Part shown: piece by piece, positions 1 to 19,628 of the stretch | Numbering within the stretch: the stretch's first letter is position 1 | Layout of the letters: each line of letters opens with the position of its first letter | NCBI GenBank assembly: GCA_041648535.1 | Contig: JBAZOX010000001.1 | Location: forward strand, 1 to 40,147 | DNA from: Desulfobacteria bacterium | Lineage (GTDB): Bacteria > Desulfobacterota > UBA8473 | Direction: 5' to 3' | DNA length: 40,147 bases | Made by a program: the position numbers and the translations under genes | The notes under the pieces: generated by a model | What the model was told of the DNA's origin: nothing | The model's database searches: none | What the model saw: the letters and a program-made list of their open reading frames with translations, nothing else

Positions 1-1124
1 GTTTGGATAAATTGCATCGCTGCTTCAAAAACGGGATTTTGATGATATGCCCTTGCTTCAATAACCCCTTGATTTACCAAAAGACAGAGAAGAGGGGCAT
101 CACCGTGATACCTCAAGCCTCCGGCATGGATGCCTGGCGGAACAAAGGTATGCCCTAATGTGTACATCATTAATAGCGGTGTCATCTGAGCAGTATCACC
201 AAAATCATAGCGGTAAGGTCCCTTGGTCAATGTGGGACATGAGGTAGGTTCCACCGCGATTATCCTCATGTCTTTACCGTTCAACTTGTCTTTGACAAAC
301 GGGAAACAGAACCCGGCAAAGTTGCTTCCTCCGCCAACACAGCCAATCAAAACATCCGGGGATTCCCCTGCTAATTTCAATTGTTCCTTTACCTCTAAAC
401 CGATAATGGTTTGATGTAATAAGACATGGTTTAGCACACTCCCCAGAGAATATTTAGTATCATCGTGGGTAGCTGCATCCTCTACCGCTTCTGAAATGGC
501 CATGCCGAGACTACCCAATGTGTTTGGATCTTTCTCTAAAATACTCCTTCCTGCATTGGTTAAGTTGGTCGGAGATGGATGCACCGTTGCCCCCCATGCG
601 TGCATCAAAGACCTCCGGTAAGGTTTTTGCTCATAGCTCACCTTTACCATGTAGACGGTACATTCTATATCAAACAGTTTACAGGCAAAAGCCAGAGCGC
701 TTCCCCATTGCCCTGCCCCTGTCTCTGTAGCAATCCTTTTCACCCCTTCTTTCTTATTGTAATATGCCTGAGCAACAGCAGTGTTTGGTTTGTGACTTCC
801 GGCAGGGCTCACGCTCTCGTTCTTATAGTATATCCTGGCAGGGGTTCCCAATGCCTTTTCCAACCTTTTTGCCCTATGCAAAGGGGTTGGTCTCCACAGC
901 CGGTAAATATCCAGAATTTCATCCGGTATCTCTATCCAGCGCTCCTGACTTACCTCTTGTTCTATAAGCCCCATGGGAAATATTGGAGCCAGATCTTCAG
1001 GGCCTATTGGTTGGCCTGTTCCTGGATTTAATGGAGGCATAAGCGGTTTGGGCAGATCTGCCTGTACGTTATACCACTTCTGAGGCAACTCTTTTTCACT
1101 CAATAAAATCTTTGTATCTTCCAT
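1..1124 (-). CDS. trpB: Tryptophan synthase beta subunit, TrpB2-type (C-terminus runs off the window)
   Basis: Not in the ORF track because it is open at the window edge. Minus-strand ATG at 1124-1122 follows GGAGAAG. My translation is [25 protein letters not shown]...[19 protein letters not shown]...[13 protein letters not shown]...[11 protein letters not shown]. It has the PLP-lysine and GGGSN motifs and the long N-terminus typical of TrpB2. The + strand ORFs at 223-1031 are antisense shadows. Confidence 0.85.
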
Positions 1125-1225
1125 ATTCTTCTCCTTTTATACAAAAGAATTTGCTGGAAGGATATCCTTCCAGTTATCCCTAAAATCCTGTAATAAAGAA
1201 CTCTACACCACCCCCTTTATTAGTT

Positions 1226-1418
1226 GTAACTATTCAGGCACAAAGAGACAAAGGCACATAGGCACAAAGTTGTAGGAATACGATCGGAATGCAGGACATA
1301 ACCTGTCCAAATACCGCTTTGTAAACATTTTATAGGAACTTAATCAACTCATTCTCTTCAGATCTCTCGACTTTGTGCCTTTGGTGCTCTGTGCCTTTGT
1401 GCCTACCTGAGTAGTAAC
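1226..1418. repeat. Heptamer-hairpin element A (GTAACTATTCAGG ... CCTGAGTAGTAAC ends, GGCACAAAG-type arms, about 95-nt centre)
   Basis: The arms ggcacaaagagacaaaggcacataggcacaaag and ctttgtgcctttggtgctctgtgcctttgtgcc are imperfect reverse complements. The end motifs are shared with the elements at 3280, 14832, 15040, 19547 and 26098. Confidence 0.75.
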
Positions 1419-1500
1419 CCTTAGTTTAGATATGGAGAGTTTTAAAGGTCTCTCTTCAAAGATCAAGAGGACTTTCTGCTACTTCTGCCGAGAGGAAAGA

Positions 1501-1543
1501 AAACAAAAAAGCCATGGACGAAAAGGAAGAGCCCATGGCTTTT
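1501..1543 (-). terminator. Second hairpin plus U-run downstream of the trp leader (AAAAGCCAUGG / CCAUGGCUUUU)
   Basis: The + strand reads aaaagccatgg(1507-1517)...ccatggctttt(1533-1543). On the minus strand the stem is followed by UUUUUUGUUU. Confidence 0.5.
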
Positions 1544-1548
1544 GATAT

Positions 1549-1584
1549 AAAAAAGGCCGCAGGCTACAGGATTTGCCCACGGTC
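1549..1584 (-). terminator. Attenuator terminator of the trp leader
   Basis: The minus-strand RNA is GACCGUGGGC-AAAUCCUGUA-GCCUGCGGCC followed by UUUUUU. That gives a 10-bp stem with one mismatch and two G-U pairs. Its 5' arm also pairs with an upstream segment, giving the antiterminator alternative. Confidence 0.65.
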
Positions 1585-1653
1585 TTCCATTGATTTTTAT
1601 TTATTGATTATTTAGTATCGAGTGAGATGGGCGGACAAATCCCTAGTATGTAA

Positions 1654-1713
1654 TTAGTTCCACCACCACCACCAATTGCTATCGTAACTATAGGAAATCT
1701 CTTTGCCGCTCAT
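1654..1713 (-). CDS. Trp leader peptide MSGKEISYSYDSNWWWWWN (5 consecutive UGG codons)
   Basis: A 19-codon minus-strand ORF. The + strand has cca x5 at 1660-1674 and the stop is TAA at 1656-1654. It lies upstream of trpB2 on the same strand and is followed by alternative hairpins and a terminator. Confidence 0.8.
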   Translation of the reverse strand: MSGKEISYSYDSNWWWWWN

Positions 1714-1745
1714 ACTCTTAAAGCCCTTTTAATAAAGTGTAGAAT

Positions 1746-1774
1746 TCATTAGCATAATAGATCTCGATTGTCAA
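1746..1774 (-). promoter_or_regulatory. Candidate sigma-70 promoter for the trp leader transcript
   Basis: The minus strand reads TTGACA (1774-1769), a 17-nt spacer ending TGc, then TAATGA (1751-1746). This is an extended -10-like arrangement, about 33 nt upstream of the leader ATG. Confidence 0.4.
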
Positions 1775-1800
1775 GCATTTTCTGATTTATAATTTTTTTC

Positions 1801-1829
1801 TTGACAAATCAATCGTCAGTATATAAAAA
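1801..1829 (+). promoter_or_regulatory. Candidate sigma-70 promoter for the aromatic leader / DAHP synthase transcript
   Basis: TTGACA is at 1801-1806. TATAAA / TAAAAA -10 candidates fall at 1822-1829 (15-17 nt spacing). The promoter is divergent from the trp leader promoter, with 26 bp between the two -35 boxes. Confidence 0.45.
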
Positions 1830-1848
1830 GATAAGAAAGGAGTCGGTT

Positions 1849-1935
1849 ATGTTGTTTTATTTTGCAAATCTTATATTTAAGACATTTTGCTGGCGGTTTT
1901 ATTTTATCTTTATAAAGTCTGCCCAGCATCCTTGA
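1849..1935 (+). CDS. Aromatic-rich leader peptide MLFYFANLIFKTFCWRFYFIFIKSAQHP
   Basis: AAGGAG at 1837-1842 lies 6 nt before the ATG. Ten of 28 residues are aromatic (7 F, 2 Y, 1 W), clustered as FCWRFYFIF just before an antiterminator/terminator pair upstream of DAHP synthase. Confidence 0.7.
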   Translation: MLFYFANLIFKTFCWRFYFIFIKSAQHP

Positions 1936-1972
1936 ACTAGATTTGTAAAATAAAACACAACAGATCTCAAGG

Positions 1973-2014
1973 CCATGGGCAGACTGACGGTAAAACCCAT
2001 GGTTTTTTGTTTTT
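1973..2014 (+). terminator. Attenuator terminator upstream of DAHP synthase
   Basis: CCATGGG (1973-1979) and CCCATGG (1996-2002) form the stem, followed by TTTTTTGTTTTT. The 5' arm overlaps the sequence tgggcagact (1976-1985). That sequence pairs perfectly with agtctgccca (1916-1925) inside the end of the leader ORF. Confidence 0.7.
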
Positions 2015-2036
2015 ACATAGTACGTTAGTATATATT

Positions 2037-2067
2037 AAGCCATGGGTAAAAAGCTCATGGCTTTTTT
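2037..2067 (+). terminator. Second hairpin plus T-run (AAGCCATG / CATGGCTT)
   Basis: An 8-bp stem (2037-2044 / 2056-2063) with an 11-nt loop is followed by a T-run. The ATG at 2042 that opens the ORF-track entry lies inside this hairpin. Confidence 0.5.
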
Positions 2068-2080
2068 GTTTTTAAAAGGT

Positions 2081-2185
2081 GACGGCTTTGTAAAAAGTCC
2101 ATCTGCGGCGTTCCGCCTCATTCCTTCGGATTTGCGCGCCTTGCATCTGGAGCTTTTTACTGTGCCGTCTGATTTTTTTTACGAC
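2081..2185. repeat. MITE-like palindromic repeat, copy 1 (GACGGC..GTAAAAAG..TCCA..TG ends)
   Basis: It is the reverse complement of 5428-5574 at near identity, apart from a 36-nt indel. It creates the false N-terminal extension of the 2042 ORF ([28 protein letters not shown]). Confidence 0.8.
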
Positions 2186-2215
2186 TTCATCAAAAGGTTA
2201 TTCGGGAGGGGAAAG

Positions 2216-3232
2216 ATGATAATTGTAATGAAAGCAAAAGCAAAAAAAGAGGAGTTGGAGGAGGTTGTGAAGAAGATAGAAAAATTAGGTTATAAACCCC
2301 ACATTATTCAGGGGGTAGAAAGGAGTGTCATCGGAGCTGTCGGTGACGAAAGGGGAAAGGCCAAACTGCAATCTCTGGAAGTCCTTCCTGGGGTTGACAA
2401 GGTTGTGCCTATCCTTAAGCCTTATAAACTCGCCAGTCGTGACATAAAGCCAGAGGGAACTGTTGTCAGCATCGACGGCAGAGTAGAAATCGGTGGTAAT
2501 AAGATAGTAGTTATTGCAGGGCCTTGTTCTGTTGAGAGTGAGGAACAGATCATAGAGTCAGCTCATATTGTAAAAAAAGCTGGCGCAGATATTCTCCGCG
2601 GCGGTGCTTTTAAGCCCCGGACTTCTCCATACAGTTTTCAAGGCTTAGAAAAAAAAGGGCTGATCTTACTCGCTAAAGCTAAAGAGAAGGTTGGTCTCCC
2701 GGTTGTAACAGAGATCATAAACCCTAAAGACGTTGATCTGGTTGCAGAATATTCAGATATTATGCAGGTTGGGGCAAGGAATGTCCAAAACTTTGCCCTT
2801 CTGAAAAAACTGGGAAAGCATAATAAACCCATATTACTAAAACGAGGGATGTCTACCACTGTAGAGGAATTCTTGATGTCAGCAGAATACATACTCTCTG
2901 AAGGGAACAAAGACGTGATTTTGTGTGAGAGAGGCATAAGGACATTTGAAACCGCTACAAGAAATACCCTGGATTTGAGTTGCATCCCGGTTTTAAAAGA
3001 AAGGACCCATCTGCCTATAATTGTTGACCCAAGTCATGCTACAGGGTTTTGGTCATATGTAGCTCCAATGTCGTATGCAGCAATTGCAGCAGGGGCCGAT
3101 GGCCTTATGATAGAGGTGCATCCCAATCCGGAAGATGCTGAAAGCGACGGTATTCAGTCCCTGAAACCCCATAAGTTTGCCGCTTTGATGGAGAATCTAA
3201 AAGCCTATATAGCGGCAGCAGGAAGGGTGTGA
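2216..3232 (+). CDS. aroF: 3-deoxy-7-phosphoheptulonate (DAHP) synthase, type I-beta with N-terminal ACT/ferredoxin-like regulatory domain
   Basis: GGGAGGGG precedes the ATG at 2216. [29 protein letters not shown] is the regulatory domain. The catalytic core is IAGPCSVES...[11 protein letters not shown]...KRG...DPSH. Confidence 0.85.
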
Positions 3233-3279
3233 CAATTCCTTGACTTTTATGCCTTTATGATTTACCCTCTTAACAAATG

Positions 3280-3400
3280 GTAACTATTCAGGTAGGCACA
3301 GAGCAGAGCGGAGCAGGGTCGTGAATCGTGAAGCGTGAATCGATTTACGATTTACGGATTACGAATTTGTGCCTTTGCCACTTTGTGCCTGAGTAGTTAC
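3280..3400. repeat. Heptamer-hairpin element B (GTAACTATTCAGG ... CCTGAGTAGTTAC)
   Basis: The 13-nt terminal inverted repeat has one T/C difference. It has nested arms: GGCACAGAG / CTTTGTGCC outside and CGTGAAT x3 / ATTTACG x3 inside. Confidence 0.8.
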
Positions 3401-3434
3401 GTTACCCACTATTTTAAGTTCAGGGAGAAAAAGG

Positions 3435-3857
3435 ATGGAGAAAAAAGTCCTGGAGGTTTTGTCCGGCAAAATCCAAAATGACCCCTATGCACGGTTTTTA
3501 GGCATCGAATTGATAGAGATCAATACGGGCTACTCAAAATTGAGGATGCCCTTAAAGGGCTGTATGCACAATTTTGTGGGTATTGCTCATGGTGGTGCCA
3601 TCTTCAGCTTGGCAGATCACGCATTCGCAGCGGCATCAAATTCTCACGGCACACTGGCTGTCGCCTTAAATATGAGTATCACTTATATTTCTGCTCCTTC
3701 GGAAGGTTCGGTTTTAGTGGCAGAAGCGAAAGAGATAAGTTTAACTCCAAGGACAGCCTTATACAGGATAGATGTATCAACTGAGGACAATAAGCTTATT
3801 GCTTCATGTCAGGGGATTGTTTATAGGAAAAAGAACTCTATACCCGGTATTGATTGA
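3435..3857 (+). CDS. PaaI/hotdog-fold acyl-CoA thioesterase
   Basis: Carries the HGGAIFSLADHAFAAA motif typical of PaaI-family thioesterases, at 140 aa. Confidence 0.75.
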   Translation: MEKKVLEVLSGKIQNDPYARFLGIELIEINTGYSKLRMPLKGCMHNFVGIAHGGAIFSLADHAFAAASNSHGTLAVALNMSITYISAPSEGSVLVAEAKEISLTPRTALYRIDVSTEDNKLIASCQGIVYRKKNSIPGID

Positions 3858-3888
3858 GCGAAGGAGAGATTGAAGAAGGAATAAAGAG

Positions 3889-4617
3889 TTGAAATGGGCA
3901 GTCTTATCGGATATTCACGGAAATTTAGAGGCATTTAATGCCGTTTTGGATTGTCTCTCTGAAGAGGGCATTGACAGAGTAGCCTTTTTGGGAGACGTTG
4001 TTGGTTATGGGGCAAACCCCAATGAATGTATTGATCGCCTTAAAGACATTGCGGACATAGTTGTGGCAGGCAATCACGATTACGGAGCTGTCGGATTAAC
4101 AGATACCTCCAATCTGAACCCTGTAGCCAGGGCTGCCATTGAATGGACGGCAAAGGAGTTATCAACCGTCAATCGCAACTTCCTGTCAGGGTTTCACTTA
4201 ATTTCCATTATAGATGATATTACATTTGTTCACTCTACACCATACAATCCGCAAAATTGGGACTACCTCTCTTATCGTGATGATTTAACTATGAATTTTG
4301 ATTCATTTAAGACTCGAATCTGTTTTATAGGACATTCTCATATACCTGTTGTATTTAAAAAAGATAAGGGAGAAAGGGTTTCTCTTTCAAAAGCCCTAAT
4401 AGTTCGATTGGAAGAGGGGGCCAGGTATCTAATTAACGTGGGAAGTGTAGGACAACCCCGGGATGGTATTCCAGATGCAGCCTTTGGCATCTATGATGCG
4501 AAAGAATGCGTGTTTACACTTAAGAGGTCCCCCTATGACATTGGGACTGCCCAAAAAAAGATTATAAAGGCTGGACTGCCAGAACGTTTGGCGGCCAGGA
4601 TAGCTGTAGGCAGATAA
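3889..4617 (+). CDS. Metallophosphoesterase (YfcE/MJ0936-like)
   Basis: Has the SDIHGN, GDVVGYG, GNHD and GHSH metal-binding motifs in order. TTG start. Confidence 0.8.
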   Translation: MKWAVLSDIHGNLEAFNAVLDCLSEEGIDRVAFLGDVVGYGANPNECIDRLKDIADIVVAGNHDYGAVGLTDTSNLNPVARAAIEWTAKELSTVNRNFLSGFHLISIIDDITFVHSTPYNPQNWDYLSYRDDLTMNFDSFKTRICFIGHSHIPVVFKKDKGERVSLSKALIVRLEEGARYLINVGSVGQPRDGIPDAAFGIYDAKECVFTLKRSPYDIGTAQKKIIKAGLPERLAARIAVGR

Positions 4618-4673: not shown

Positions 4674-5423
4674 ATGGAGCTGGGACAGTTAAAACGCTTG
4701 TTAGAGGGGGTTAAAAAAGGGGATGTTGGGATTGACGAAGCATTGGAGTCGTTAAAGACCTTACCCTTTGAAGACATTGGTCATGCCACCATTGATCACC
4801 ACCGTCATTTGAGGCTCGGATTCCCAGAGGTAATATTCGGCGAGGGGAAGTCTGATGGGGATATCATAGCCATAGTCCAAAGGATGATTGAGAAGGGAGA
4901 GAATATTTTAGTAACCAGGGTGGAGAAAAAAAAGGCCATTAACATAAAAAAGGCCTTTCCAAAGGCAAAATACCATCCAAAACCACGAGCAATTACAATA
5001 ATAAATCAGCAAATAAAAAAGGAGGGGAAGGGCACTATCCTGATCATAAGTGCCGGAACCTCAGATATCCCCATTGCTGACGAGGCTGTACTTGTTGCTG
5101 AGATGATGGGTAACCGGGTAGATCGCCTTTATGATGTGGGAGTTGCCGGTATACATCGGTTGGTAAGTCAGCGGGAAAGGCTTTTGCAAGCCAGTGTCCT
5201 GGTGGTTGTGGCAGGAATGGAAGGGGCACTGCCAAGTGTAGTTGGTGGACTCGTATCGAAACCGATCATTGCAGTTCCTACCAGCATTGGCTATGGAGCA
5301 AATTTTGGCGGAGTGACTGCTTTACTTGGGATGCTGAATTCCTGTGCTCCTGGGGTTGCCGTGGTGAATATAGACAATGGCTTCGGGGCAGGATATATTG
5401 CGGGCTTAATAAATAAGGTTTGA
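4674..5423 (+). CDS. larB: Nickel-pincer cofactor biosynthesis protein LarB (AIR-carboxylase-like)
   Basis: Contains DHHRHLRLGFPEVIFGEGK and the C-terminal SAGTSDIP...AGMEGALPSVVGG...PTSIGYGA motifs. Confidence 0.8.
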   Translation: MELGQLKRLLEGVKKGDVGIDEALESLKTLPFEDIGHATIDHHRHLRLGFPEVIFGEGKSDGDIIAIVQRMIEKGENILVTRVEKKKAINIKKAFPKAKYHPKPRAITIINQQIKKEGKGTILIISAGTSDIPIADEAVLVAEMMGNRVDRLYDVGVAGIHRLVSQRERLLQASVLVVVAGMEGALPSVVGGLVSKPIIAVPTSIGYGANFGGVTALLGMLNSCAPGVAVVNIDNGFGAGYIAGLINKV

Positions 5424-5427
5424 TAAA

Positions 5428-5574
5428 GTCATAAAAAGTCAAAAATCAGACGGCACAGTAAAAAGCTCCAGATGTAAGGCGCGCAAATCCGAAGGAATGA
5501 GGCGTACTTACCTGTACGCTGCAATAACTGAGGATGCAGCGGAACGCCGCAGATGGACTTTTTACGAAGCCGTC
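5428..5574. repeat. MITE-like palindromic repeat, copy 2 (with 36-nt central insertion)
   Basis: It matches the reverse complement of 2081-2185, with extra tacttacctgtacgctgcaataactgaggatgcagc at 5505-5540. It creates the false N-terminal extension of the 5534 ORF. Confidence 0.8.
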
Positions 5575-5587
5575 AAGGTGTGAAGGT

Positions 5588-9564: not shown

Positions 9565-9602
9565 TTAAATTTTTCATTTTTCAGTATGAACTAAAGTAGA
9601 AG

Positions 9603-14610: not shown

Positions 14611-14685
<75 letters not shown>

Positions 14686-19073: not shown

Positions 19074-19544
19074 ATGAAAAAAGTATTTATGCTGATTTTA
19101 GTCTGTACTTTATTACTGGCAGTTGTTTATACACCAAGCACGGGTACCGCCGCACAGGAAATGGGGGAGAGGTCCACCGCTCTCTTAGTAGAGAAGGCCG
19201 TCGCTTTCTTAAAAGCAAATGGGAAAGACGCTTCTTTTGCAGAGTTTAACAAAAGTAACGGAAAATTTTCAGACGGCAGTCGGTATGTTTATGTCGTAGA
19301 CTCTAAAGGGAATACGTTGGCCCATGGGGGTAATAGCGGTATGATTGGTAAAAATTTATACGAATTGAAGGACTCGGATATGAAACCTTTTATGAAAGAA
19401 ATTATTAATAATGCGATGTCGGAAGGTTTTGGATGGGTTGATTATAAATGGCCAAATCTTCCCATAAGCAACAAAGCCGTACTCAGATCAGCTTATTTTA
19501 AAAAGGTTAATGATGTTATTATCATCTCTTCAACACTAAAATGA
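19074..19544 (+). CDS. Secreted stand-alone single-Cache (sCache_2-like) domain protein
   Basis: It has a signal peptide, MKKVFMLILVCTLLLAVVY. It then carries FAEFNKSNGKF.DG.RYVYVVDSKGNTLAHG...GKNLYELKD...GFGWVDYKWP, the sCache_2 pattern. Confidence 0.6.
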   Translation: MKKVFMLILVCTLLLAVVYTPSTGTAAQEMGERSTALLVEKAVAFLKANGKDASFAEFNKSNGKFSDGSRYVYVVDSKGNTLAHGGNSGMIGKNLYELKDSDMKPFMKEIINNAMSEGFGWVDYKWPNLPISNKAVLRSAYFKKVNDVIIISSTLK

Positions 19545-19546
19545 GG

Positions 19547-19628
19547 GTTACTACTCAGGTTGTTTAGGCTGTAGGCTGAAGGCTGTTAGGCTACAGCCTA
19601 CAGTCTAACAGTCTACAGCCTATCCATC
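19547..19628. repeat. Heptamer-hairpin element E (GTTACTACTCAGG left end; CTGTAGG-type arms)
   Basis: It is in the same orientation and subfamily as element D. The right terminal motif is absent. Confidence 0.7.

Follow-up and report, generated by a model that had tools for sequence, protein, structure and literature searches.

The window analysed here, a 40,147-nucleotide (nt) stretch of contig JBAZOX010000001.1 from a Desulfobacteria bacterium, begins on its minus strand with trpB2, a gene for a TrpB-like pyridoxal phosphate enzyme that is cut at the window edge after 374 codons (1..1124). Upstream of this gene lies a leader region (1500-1774, minus strand) composed of a short open reading frame (ORF) with a run of tryptophan codons (W-run), a set of overlapping helices and two consecutive terminator-like hairpins, T1 and T2. 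Behind it, on the plus strand, a second leader precedes a gene for 3-deoxy-D-arabino-heptulosonate 7-phosphate (DAHP) synthase, aroF. The sequence argues that the first leader is very probably an attenuator of transcription, ribosome-mediated and of the leader-peptide type, that responds to charged tRNA-Trp and controls a trp operon headed by trpB2. An earlier note on this DNA had proposed attenuation of the trpL type acting on a stand-alone trpB2. The attenuator elements that it described are borne out below; the stand-alone gene is not.

Leader ORF and competing helices

The trpL-like leader ORF is read on the minus strand at 1713-1654 and has 19 sense codons plus a stop (peptide MSGKEISYSYDSNWWWWWN). 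It starts with ATG at 1713-1711, contains five consecutive TGG codons at 1674-1660 and, after one AAC codon, ends with TAA at 1656-1654. The earlier note had given the same 19 codons and the same position of the Trp codons, and had placed the ORF about 530 nt from the TrpB2-type gene; from the leader stop to the trpB2 ATG (1124-1122) the distance is 530 nt. A Shine-Dalgarno-like AAAGGG (1724..1729, minus strand) is located about 10 nt 5' of the leader ATG. Further upstream is a putative promoter block (1746..1774, minus strand) with a -35 hexamer, TTGACA, at 1774-1769. Inspection of the sequence suggests two uncertain -10 candidates, GCTAAT at 1753-1748 (15-nt spacer) or TAATGA at 1751-1746 (17-nt spacer). 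The window contains a single (TGG)5 run; none of 100 dinucleotide-preserving shuffles contains one, even if one mismatch is tolerated. The identical MSGKEISYSYDSNWWWWWN ORF is found in an independent assembly, L001 (loci carry L numbers throughout).

The five UGG codons form region 1 (1660..1674, minus strand, as are all regions of this leader), which supplies the candidate regulatory codons and the 5' strand of a first pairing (1:2). Region 2 (1625..1643), GGGAUUUGUCCGC(CCAUC), has region 1 and region 3 as alternative partners. Its CCGCC, at 1634-1630, can pair with GGUGG of the Trp codons, and its core GGGATTTGTCCGC (1643-1631) is complementary to GTGGGCAAATCC (1580-1569), giving a 13-bp antiterminator helix (2:3). 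Region 3 (1569..1584), GACCGUGGGCAAAUCC, is common to this antiterminator and to the 5' arm of T1 (3:4). The 3' arm of T1 is region 4 (1549..1564), GCCUGCGGCC followed by a U6 tract. On the DNA, T1 reads GACCGTGGGC/GCCTGCGGCC at 1584-1555, then T6 at 1554-1549. Since 2:3 and 3:4 overlap on GUGGGC, they exclude each other. T2 (5:6, 1500..1543), AAAAGCCAUGGGC...GUCCAUGGC plus UUUUUUGUUUU, starts about 10 nt after T1, with its hairpin AAAAGCCATGGGC...GTCCATGGC at 1543-1511 and the following TTTTTTGTTTT at 1510-1500. The pairing of GGUGG with CCGCC, the helix of about 13 bp between the complements of 1631-1643 and 1569-1580, T1 with its U6 at 1549-1584 and a second hairpin plus U-run at 1501-1543 had all been put forward in the earlier note, and each is found at the position given there. 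Thus, two predicted intrinsic terminators lie 3' of the leader ORF and before the first structural gene, and the antiterminator excludes the first of them.

These elements were compared in seven sequences, the window and six further distinct leaders (L003, L163, L164, L167, L169 and L172). The six come from uncultured Thermodesulfobacteriota/Desulfobacterales genomes assembled from metagenomes, and their TrpB2 proteins are 89-97% identical to that of the window. A TrpB2 scan of genome contigs yielded two close loci, and closer ones were obtained by protein search and contig look-ups. A scan of Joint Genome Institute (JGI) metagenomes for TrpB2 gave no locus above 81% identity.

When the segments are folded separately, the antiterminator, T1 and T2 of the window have stabilities of -19.9, -13.1 and -17.8 kcal/mol, with z-scores of -3.3, -2.1 and -6.1 against dinucleotide shuffles. 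Over the seven sequences the antiterminator ranges from -18.5 to -24.7 kcal/mol (z -1.7 to -4.9), T1 from -13.1 to -20.8 kcal/mol (z -2.1 to -5.6) and T2 from -17.4 to -20.4 kcal/mol (z -4.6 to -6.2). The antiterminator is more stable than T1 in all seven. The duplex of the W-run with region 2 is present in every sequence as well, at -10.4 to -18.3 kcal/mol, and in most of them the first codons of the leader ORF offer an additional partner. A simple terminator scan did not call T1 or T2, because their loops exceed its 8-nt limit.

Conservation in relatives and the downstream operon

The leader ATG is invariant in the seven aligned sequences, each of which has a purine-rich AAGG(G/A) at the matching position ahead of it. 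TTGACA and its flanks are likewise invariant or nearly so in all seven, even where the upstream context differs. Every leader contains a short translatable ORF with a run of three to five codons, of which at least three are UGG. In the six relatives the run has three or four codons; L003 and L164 each have a UGU or CGU in it, a single base away from UGG. The peptides themselves are diverse: MSGKEISYNYDSNWCWWNNYITRDLSTPLIR in L003, MSGKEIPYNHDSNWRWWNNYILRICPPLSLDNK in L164, MSGKEISYSYDSNWWWNNYILWICPPLSLDTK in L167, MSNKEFSCSYDSNWWWWNNYILGICPPPSP in L163, MNGKEISYDYNNNWWWWNNYIPGICLPPSFCY in L169 and MLRSKAIRKTRKNWWWIIDTEGVCPHNSLRD in L172. In L172, NWWW is retained although the remaining peptide is unrelated. 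On the 3' side of the W-run the reading frame varies among relatives but the nucleotides of region 2 are conserved, which argues that an RNA element rather than a peptide is under conservation there.

The six relatives and the window differ in where the leader ORF stops. In the relatives it continues through region 2 and stops 10-20 nt past it. In the window, and in L001, the stop follows directly after the W-run, 11 nt 5' of region 2. This early TAA is a derived state, caused by one extra T. In each leader, then, the W-run competes for the antiterminator strand or the ORF runs through region 2 (the latter in 6/7). The window variant carries an additional UGG, and its 1:2 pairing (-16.2 kcal/mol) is second in strength only to that of L163. 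The extra codon and the strong pairing may compensate for the early stop, or the variant may be leaky.

The helices are also conserved. Pairing is kept in 96.7% of cells of the alignment for the 13-bp 2:3 helix and in 98.7% for T1 and T2 together; the 12-bp stem of T2 is paired in 100% of cells. One compensatory change, A-U to G-C, is observed in the 2:3 helix of L172 and one compensatory double change, G-C to A-U, in T1 of L169. Several one-sided wobble switches (G-U/G-C or G-U/A-U) are found in the conserved helices. As a control, shifting the partners by 1-3 columns lowers the pairing to 26-53%. RNAalifold, run without guidance, returns the 2:3 helix and T2. The W-run and all helices are thus kept in the six other distinct sequences, and with them the full set of pairings and U-runs behind the 1:2 / 2:3 / 3:4 logic that the earlier note had recognised. 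We give next to no credence to the idea that a chance ORF happens to precede chance hairpins without function. Such an origin would agree with the whole-region fold, which is not significantly stable (see below), but it is contradicted by the conservation, by the compensatory changes and by the W-run, which never appeared in the shuffles.

The leader has a narrow distribution. No leader was found in relatives whose TrpB2 is at most 83% identical; L174 and L176, at 83% identity, have different neighbours and no leader. With one exception, relatives at or below 83% identity lack both the leader and the trpB2-trpE arrangement. The exception, L068, has trpE downstream of trpB2 but no WW-containing ORF. 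The leader co-occurs with the trpB2-trpE arrangement. Other W-runs in the fetched loci were dismissed as incidental: 'MCWWWE' in L056 lies inside trpB1 in another frame, and the W-run of L054 precedes an unrelated gene.

The first gene behind the leader is a member of the TrpB2 family. It scores 661.9 bits with NCBIfam PRK12391 (cut-off 366) and 605.4 bits with TIGR01415 (cut-off 518.85), and only 123.7 bits with the trpB model TIGR00263, under its cut-off of 392.45. Full-length TrpB2 homologues have 450-451 residues and are followed by trpE. The earlier note had viewed the gene as standing alone, and an attenuator over a single, salvage-type trpB2 would accord with the window, where no other downstream gene is visible, and with the many TrpB2 genes of other phyla that do stand alone. 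We consider this highly improbable, because the solitary appearance is an artefact of the window edge, which cuts inside trpB2. L001, a second assembly from the same organism, also ends within trpB2. L178, whose DNA is 97.8% identical to that of the window and which has the same repeat-element end, continues further, and its trpE starts 96 nt past the trpB2 stop. A same-strand trpE also follows trpB2 in L163, L164-166, L167, L169/170, L171/172 and L173 (TrpB2 87-96% identical). In total, trpE is directly downstream in 12 of 12 loci with TrpB2 at least 87% identical, including every leader-bearing relative, and the three sufficiently long contigs (L163, L167 and L169) show the order trpB2-trpE-trpG-trpD-trpC. 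The arrangement is otherwise rare: of 157 TrpB2 loci whose downstream sequence is long enough, 13 have trpE next, and 12 of these belong to this clade. The genes behind the leader are thus genes of tryptophan biosynthesis. No trpF, trpA or trpB1 is present within the next 4-6 kb past trpC in L163 and L167, and L169 ends about 170 nt after trpC; these genes must therefore be located elsewhere.

The gap between leader and trpB2 is unusually long because a repeat element of about 195 nt is inserted in it. This element (1226..1420, minus strand), between T2 and trpB2, resembles a miniature inverted-repeat transposable element (MITE), with inverted ends GGCACAAAGGCACA... and AACTAA on both flanks. 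It is absent in L003 and L004, and its right end is present in L178. Its ends recur in the window at 3268-3400 and 19536-19560, and in L167 and L002.

Predicted attenuation of the trp operon

Transcription would start at the conserved TTGACA block and the 19-codon leader would be translated. When Trp-tRNA is scarce, a ribosome stalled on the UGG run would cover region 1, leaving region 2 (GGGAUUUGUCCGC) free to pair with region 3 (GUGGGCAAAUCC). Formation of 2:3 would block T1, and RNA polymerase would read on. When Trp-tRNA is plentiful, the ribosome would pass the UGG run. In the window it would be released at the early UAA, so that 1:2 can form; in the relatives, where the ORF runs through region 2, the ribosome itself would cover region 2. 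Either way, region 3 would pair with region 4 and transcription would stop at the U6 tract. T2, directly after T1, would most likely catch polymerases that leak through. Under inducing conditions it could be bypassed if the freed 3' arm of T1 pairs with the 5' arm of T2.

Several observations weigh against this attenuation mechanism. Folding, which the earlier note had suggested as a check, supports it in part: the separate helices are stable, as described above, but the fold of the whole 251-nt region is not more stable than shuffles (z = -1.26) and the switch does not appear consistently at equilibrium. When ribosome masks are applied, minimum free energy folding shows the expected switch in about two of the seven sequences, cleanly in L163 only, and in L003 with a trailing ribosome included. 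In every masked state L164 and L167 keep the antiterminator, and L169 and L172 keep the terminator. A ribosome that halts at the window's early stop leaves region 2 unmasked, and this variant could be partly derepressed and leakier than its relatives. Because the alternative structures lie within a few kcal/mol of each other, the choice between them must be kinetic, as in known attenuators. The strong and invariant T2 forms together with the antiterminator at equilibrium, and a T2 that always acted would leave no induction possible unless it were bypassed. The covariation comes from seven closely related sequences and a shuffle control of the pair counts is not significant; with sequences this close the control has no power, and the counts are to be taken as compatibility and modest covariation, not as proof. 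The -10 element is poor and a consensus scan gave no promoter call at the TTGACA block. The scan's hexamer and loop rules account for its missing the promoter as well as T1 and T2. A promoter may also lie between T2 and trpB2, or inside the repeat element. Finally, no Rfam leader family is matched, either at E <= 10 over positions 1-4000 or at the gathering threshold over the whole window. The models of Trp_leader (RF00513) and of T-boxes are not among the Rfam matches, which are chance ones apart from one tRNA.

The leader resembles that of the Escherichia coli trp operon (trpL, Rfam RF00513) in its short ORF with consecutive Trp codons, in the overlapping 1:2, 2:3 and 3:4 helices and in the hairpin with U-run ahead of the trp genes. 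The stop just past the Trp codons is also shared, in the case of the window. No homology in sequence or structure is detectable, in line with the lack of an Rfam match at E <= 10. E. coli trpL has two Trp codons, whereas five are found here and three to five across the clade. Further differences from E. coli are the ORF that in relatives runs through region 2, the second terminator directly after T1, the first structural gene, trpB2 instead of trpE, and the lineage, Thermodesulfobacteriota.

Other known systems share particular features. Predicted trp attenuators of actinobacteria (Corynebacterium, Streptomyces) have leader peptides with double or triple UGG repeats, and their terminator and antiterminator share a conserved motif (PMC1262725). 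In C. diphtheriae, candidate attenuators precede trpB1EDGC and trpB2A, in the gene names of that study (PMC1262725). As here, such an operon begins with a trpB gene, although the name does not imply equivalence to the TrpB2 family. The actinobacterial attenuators belong to another phylum, are unrelated in sequence and are not described as having a tandem terminator (PMC1262725). In Sinorhizobium meliloti, the trpL attenuator controls only part of the pathway, and the terminated leader, rnTrpL, is released as a small RNA (PMC6614838). Control over only part of the pathway would be common to both systems. There is no sequence similarity to rnTrpL, and a trans function of the leader RNA here would be pure speculation. 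Literature searches on trp attenuation in delta-proteobacteria and on attenuators with tandem terminators returned nothing relevant. Tryptophan is not mentioned in Rodionov et al. 2004 (PMC545781).

The trp leader thus has the layout of a textbook mechanism in a lineage for which we came across no account of such elements in the searchable literature. It would extend classical Trp-codon attenuation to uncultured Thermodesulfobacteriota, where no Rfam model detects it. Under tryptophan limitation, a TrpB2-type enzyme would also be regulated together with the anthranilate branch (trpEGDC). Such co-regulation would argue for a role of TrpB2 in de novo synthesis in this lineage, and not only in indole salvage.

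Divergent aroF leader and tandem terminators

A second conserved leader of the same kind, which like the implications of T2 was not part of the earlier note, is found on the plus strand (1802..2073), upstream of the DAHP synthase gene and divergent from the trp leader. It begins with a promoter-like TTGACA (1802-1807) and a strong Shine-Dalgarno sequence, AAGGAG (1837-1842). The leader ORF (1849-1935) has 28 codons and encodes a peptide rich in Phe, Tyr and Trp, MLFYFANLIFKTFCWRFYFIFIKSAQHP, with 7 Phe, 2 Tyr and 1 Trp in 28 residues. GUCUGCCCA (1917-1925), inside the end of the ORF, can pair with UGGGCAGAC (1976-1984) to form an antiterminator of -24 to -30 kcal/mol. Two predicted terminators follow, T1' (1973-2002 plus U-run) and T2' (2037-2063 plus U-run). 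L003, L167, L163 and L169 retain the peptide as well as every helix. In L163, aroF is not adjacent to the trp operon and its leader is still conserved. The gene itself (2216..3232, plus strand) encodes an aroF-type DAHP synthase with an N-terminal ferredoxin-like domain (NCBIfam PRK08673, 520.5 bits; Pfam DAHP_snth_FXD and DAHP_synth_1). A repeat element of about 118 nt (2079-2196) with inverted ends GACGGC...GCCGTC separates T2' from the aroF Shine-Dalgarno sequence. It is absent from L003, L167, L163 and L169, and another copy is located at 5419-5575.

A precedent for this leader is known in Corynebacterium glutamicum, where a short ORF that includes Phe-Tyr-Phe lies ahead of the DAHP synthase gene aroF and was proposed to act as an attenuator (PMC4046766). 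The leader studied here differs in its 28-residue peptide, in the two terminators after it and in its divergent orientation to a trp leader. As a parallel attenuator for aroF, this twin would show that the lineage uses the mechanism, and it counts in favour of attenuation at the trp leader. Two attenuators back to back, one Trp-coded for trpB2EGDC and the other rich in Phe, Tyr and Trp codons for DAHP synthase, would give a compact picture of repressor-free control over aromatic amino acid synthesis.

The two leaders share more than their layout. Three terminator hairpins, at 1505-1543 (minus strand), 1973-2008 and 2037-2067 (both plus strand), have the common design CCAUGGG...C(C/U)CAUGG(C)UUUUUU, and the arms and tails of trp T2 and aroF T2' are nearly identical. 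Outside these leaders, no CCAUGGG-type hairpin was found in the window, in the relatives' 20-kb loci or in a further 1.35 Mb of fetched loci. Duplication, a role in a relay or a factor common to both leaders could each account for this sharing. CCATGG palindromes serving as operators of a dimeric repressor were considered and rejected, as the arms are spaced anywhere between 5 and 17 nt apart, a variation in keeping with RNA hairpins and not with operators.

The restriction of these near-identical hairpins to the trp and aroF leaders would suit a common regulator of aromatic amino acid genes. It could mean that a trans-acting factor, an RNA-binding protein or a tRNA, reads the shared CCAUGGG hairpins and that the W-run ORF is incidental or secondary. 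We regard this as very improbable. Neither a T-box nor any other Rfam family is matched, and the loops of the hairpins vary in length between copies. The W-run persists even where the remaining peptide has diverged, and the aroF leader is rich in its own cognate codons; both point to codon-specific sensing. A reading less likely than the relay described next is that the shared hairpin acts as a second checkpoint, read by a factor common to the aromatic amino acid regulon.

If the trp leader is an attenuator, T2 has to be bypassed during induction, and the shared hairpin arms offer a way to do so. The 5' arms of T1 (GACCGUGGGC) and of T2 (AGCCAUGGGC) are nearly identical. The 3' arm of T1 together with its U-run can therefore pair with the A-run and the 5' arm of T2, forming a possible second antiterminator (4:5, 1530..1564, minus strand). 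This hairpin has a stability of -11.7 kcal/mol in the window and of -11.7 to -17.1 kcal/mol over the seven sequences. More generally, the arms of T1 and T2 share a CC(A/G)UGGG core, which gives the 3' arm of T1 a choice between its two neighbours. The corresponding hairpin of the aroF leader, between the 3' arm of T1' and the 5' arm of T2', reaches -15.4 to -18.8 kcal/mol, next to -15.7 to -16.6 kcal/mol for T2'. We tentatively propose, as a serious possibility that falls somewhat short of an even chance, that the trp and aroF leaders are interlocked two-terminator attenuators with the chain 1:2, 2:3, 3:4, 4:5 and 5:6. A stalled ribosome would favour 2:3 and so free the 3' arm of T1 and its U-run, which would form the 4:5 hairpin and disable T2 too. 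In the case where the ribosome does not stall, T1 would form and a polymerase leaking past it would be stopped by T2. A single decision of the ribosome would in this way be passed through two terminators, which would lower basal read-through and leave induction uncapped. The conserved tandem terminators suggest a design for tightening attenuators.

The properties of T2 could also be taken as a sign that the leader and its two terminators are an autonomous small transcript, from a gene for a small RNA or a peptide, that ends at T1 or T2 in all cases, the trp operon having its own promoter past T2. T2 is strong, invariant and formed at equilibrium despite the antiterminator. A conserved block, TTGATCTTT.AAGAGA, follows it, and attenuator-derived RNAs with trans functions are known from Sinorhizobium (PMC6614838). 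This reading is improbable in our view. A conserved antiterminator more stable than T1 would be purposeless if termination were constitutive, the leader is always found upstream of the trp operon whatever lies further upstream, and a matching layout stands ahead of aroF. Moreover, a consensus scan found no credible promoter after T2.

Some further features of the two leaders may be mentioned. Within the aroF leader RNA, the opening codons of the ORF (1852-1872) can pair over about 20 bp with the spacer behind the ORF (1939-1961, plus strand), GUUGUUUUAUUUUGCAAAUCU / AGAUUUGUAAAAUAAAACACAAC. This helix encloses the whole ORF in the ribosome-free fold and has one mismatch in L167. In the window the two -35 boxes stand back to back, 28 bp apart (1769-1807). 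A rearrangement in L163 separates the two leaders (about 3600-3960 and 9569-9600 in that locus) and each of them keeps the block AAATCAGAAAATGC beside TTGACA, which hints at a shared upstream element. The tRNA gene, the sole Rfam match at the gathering threshold in the window, is located at 14611-14682 on the plus strand.

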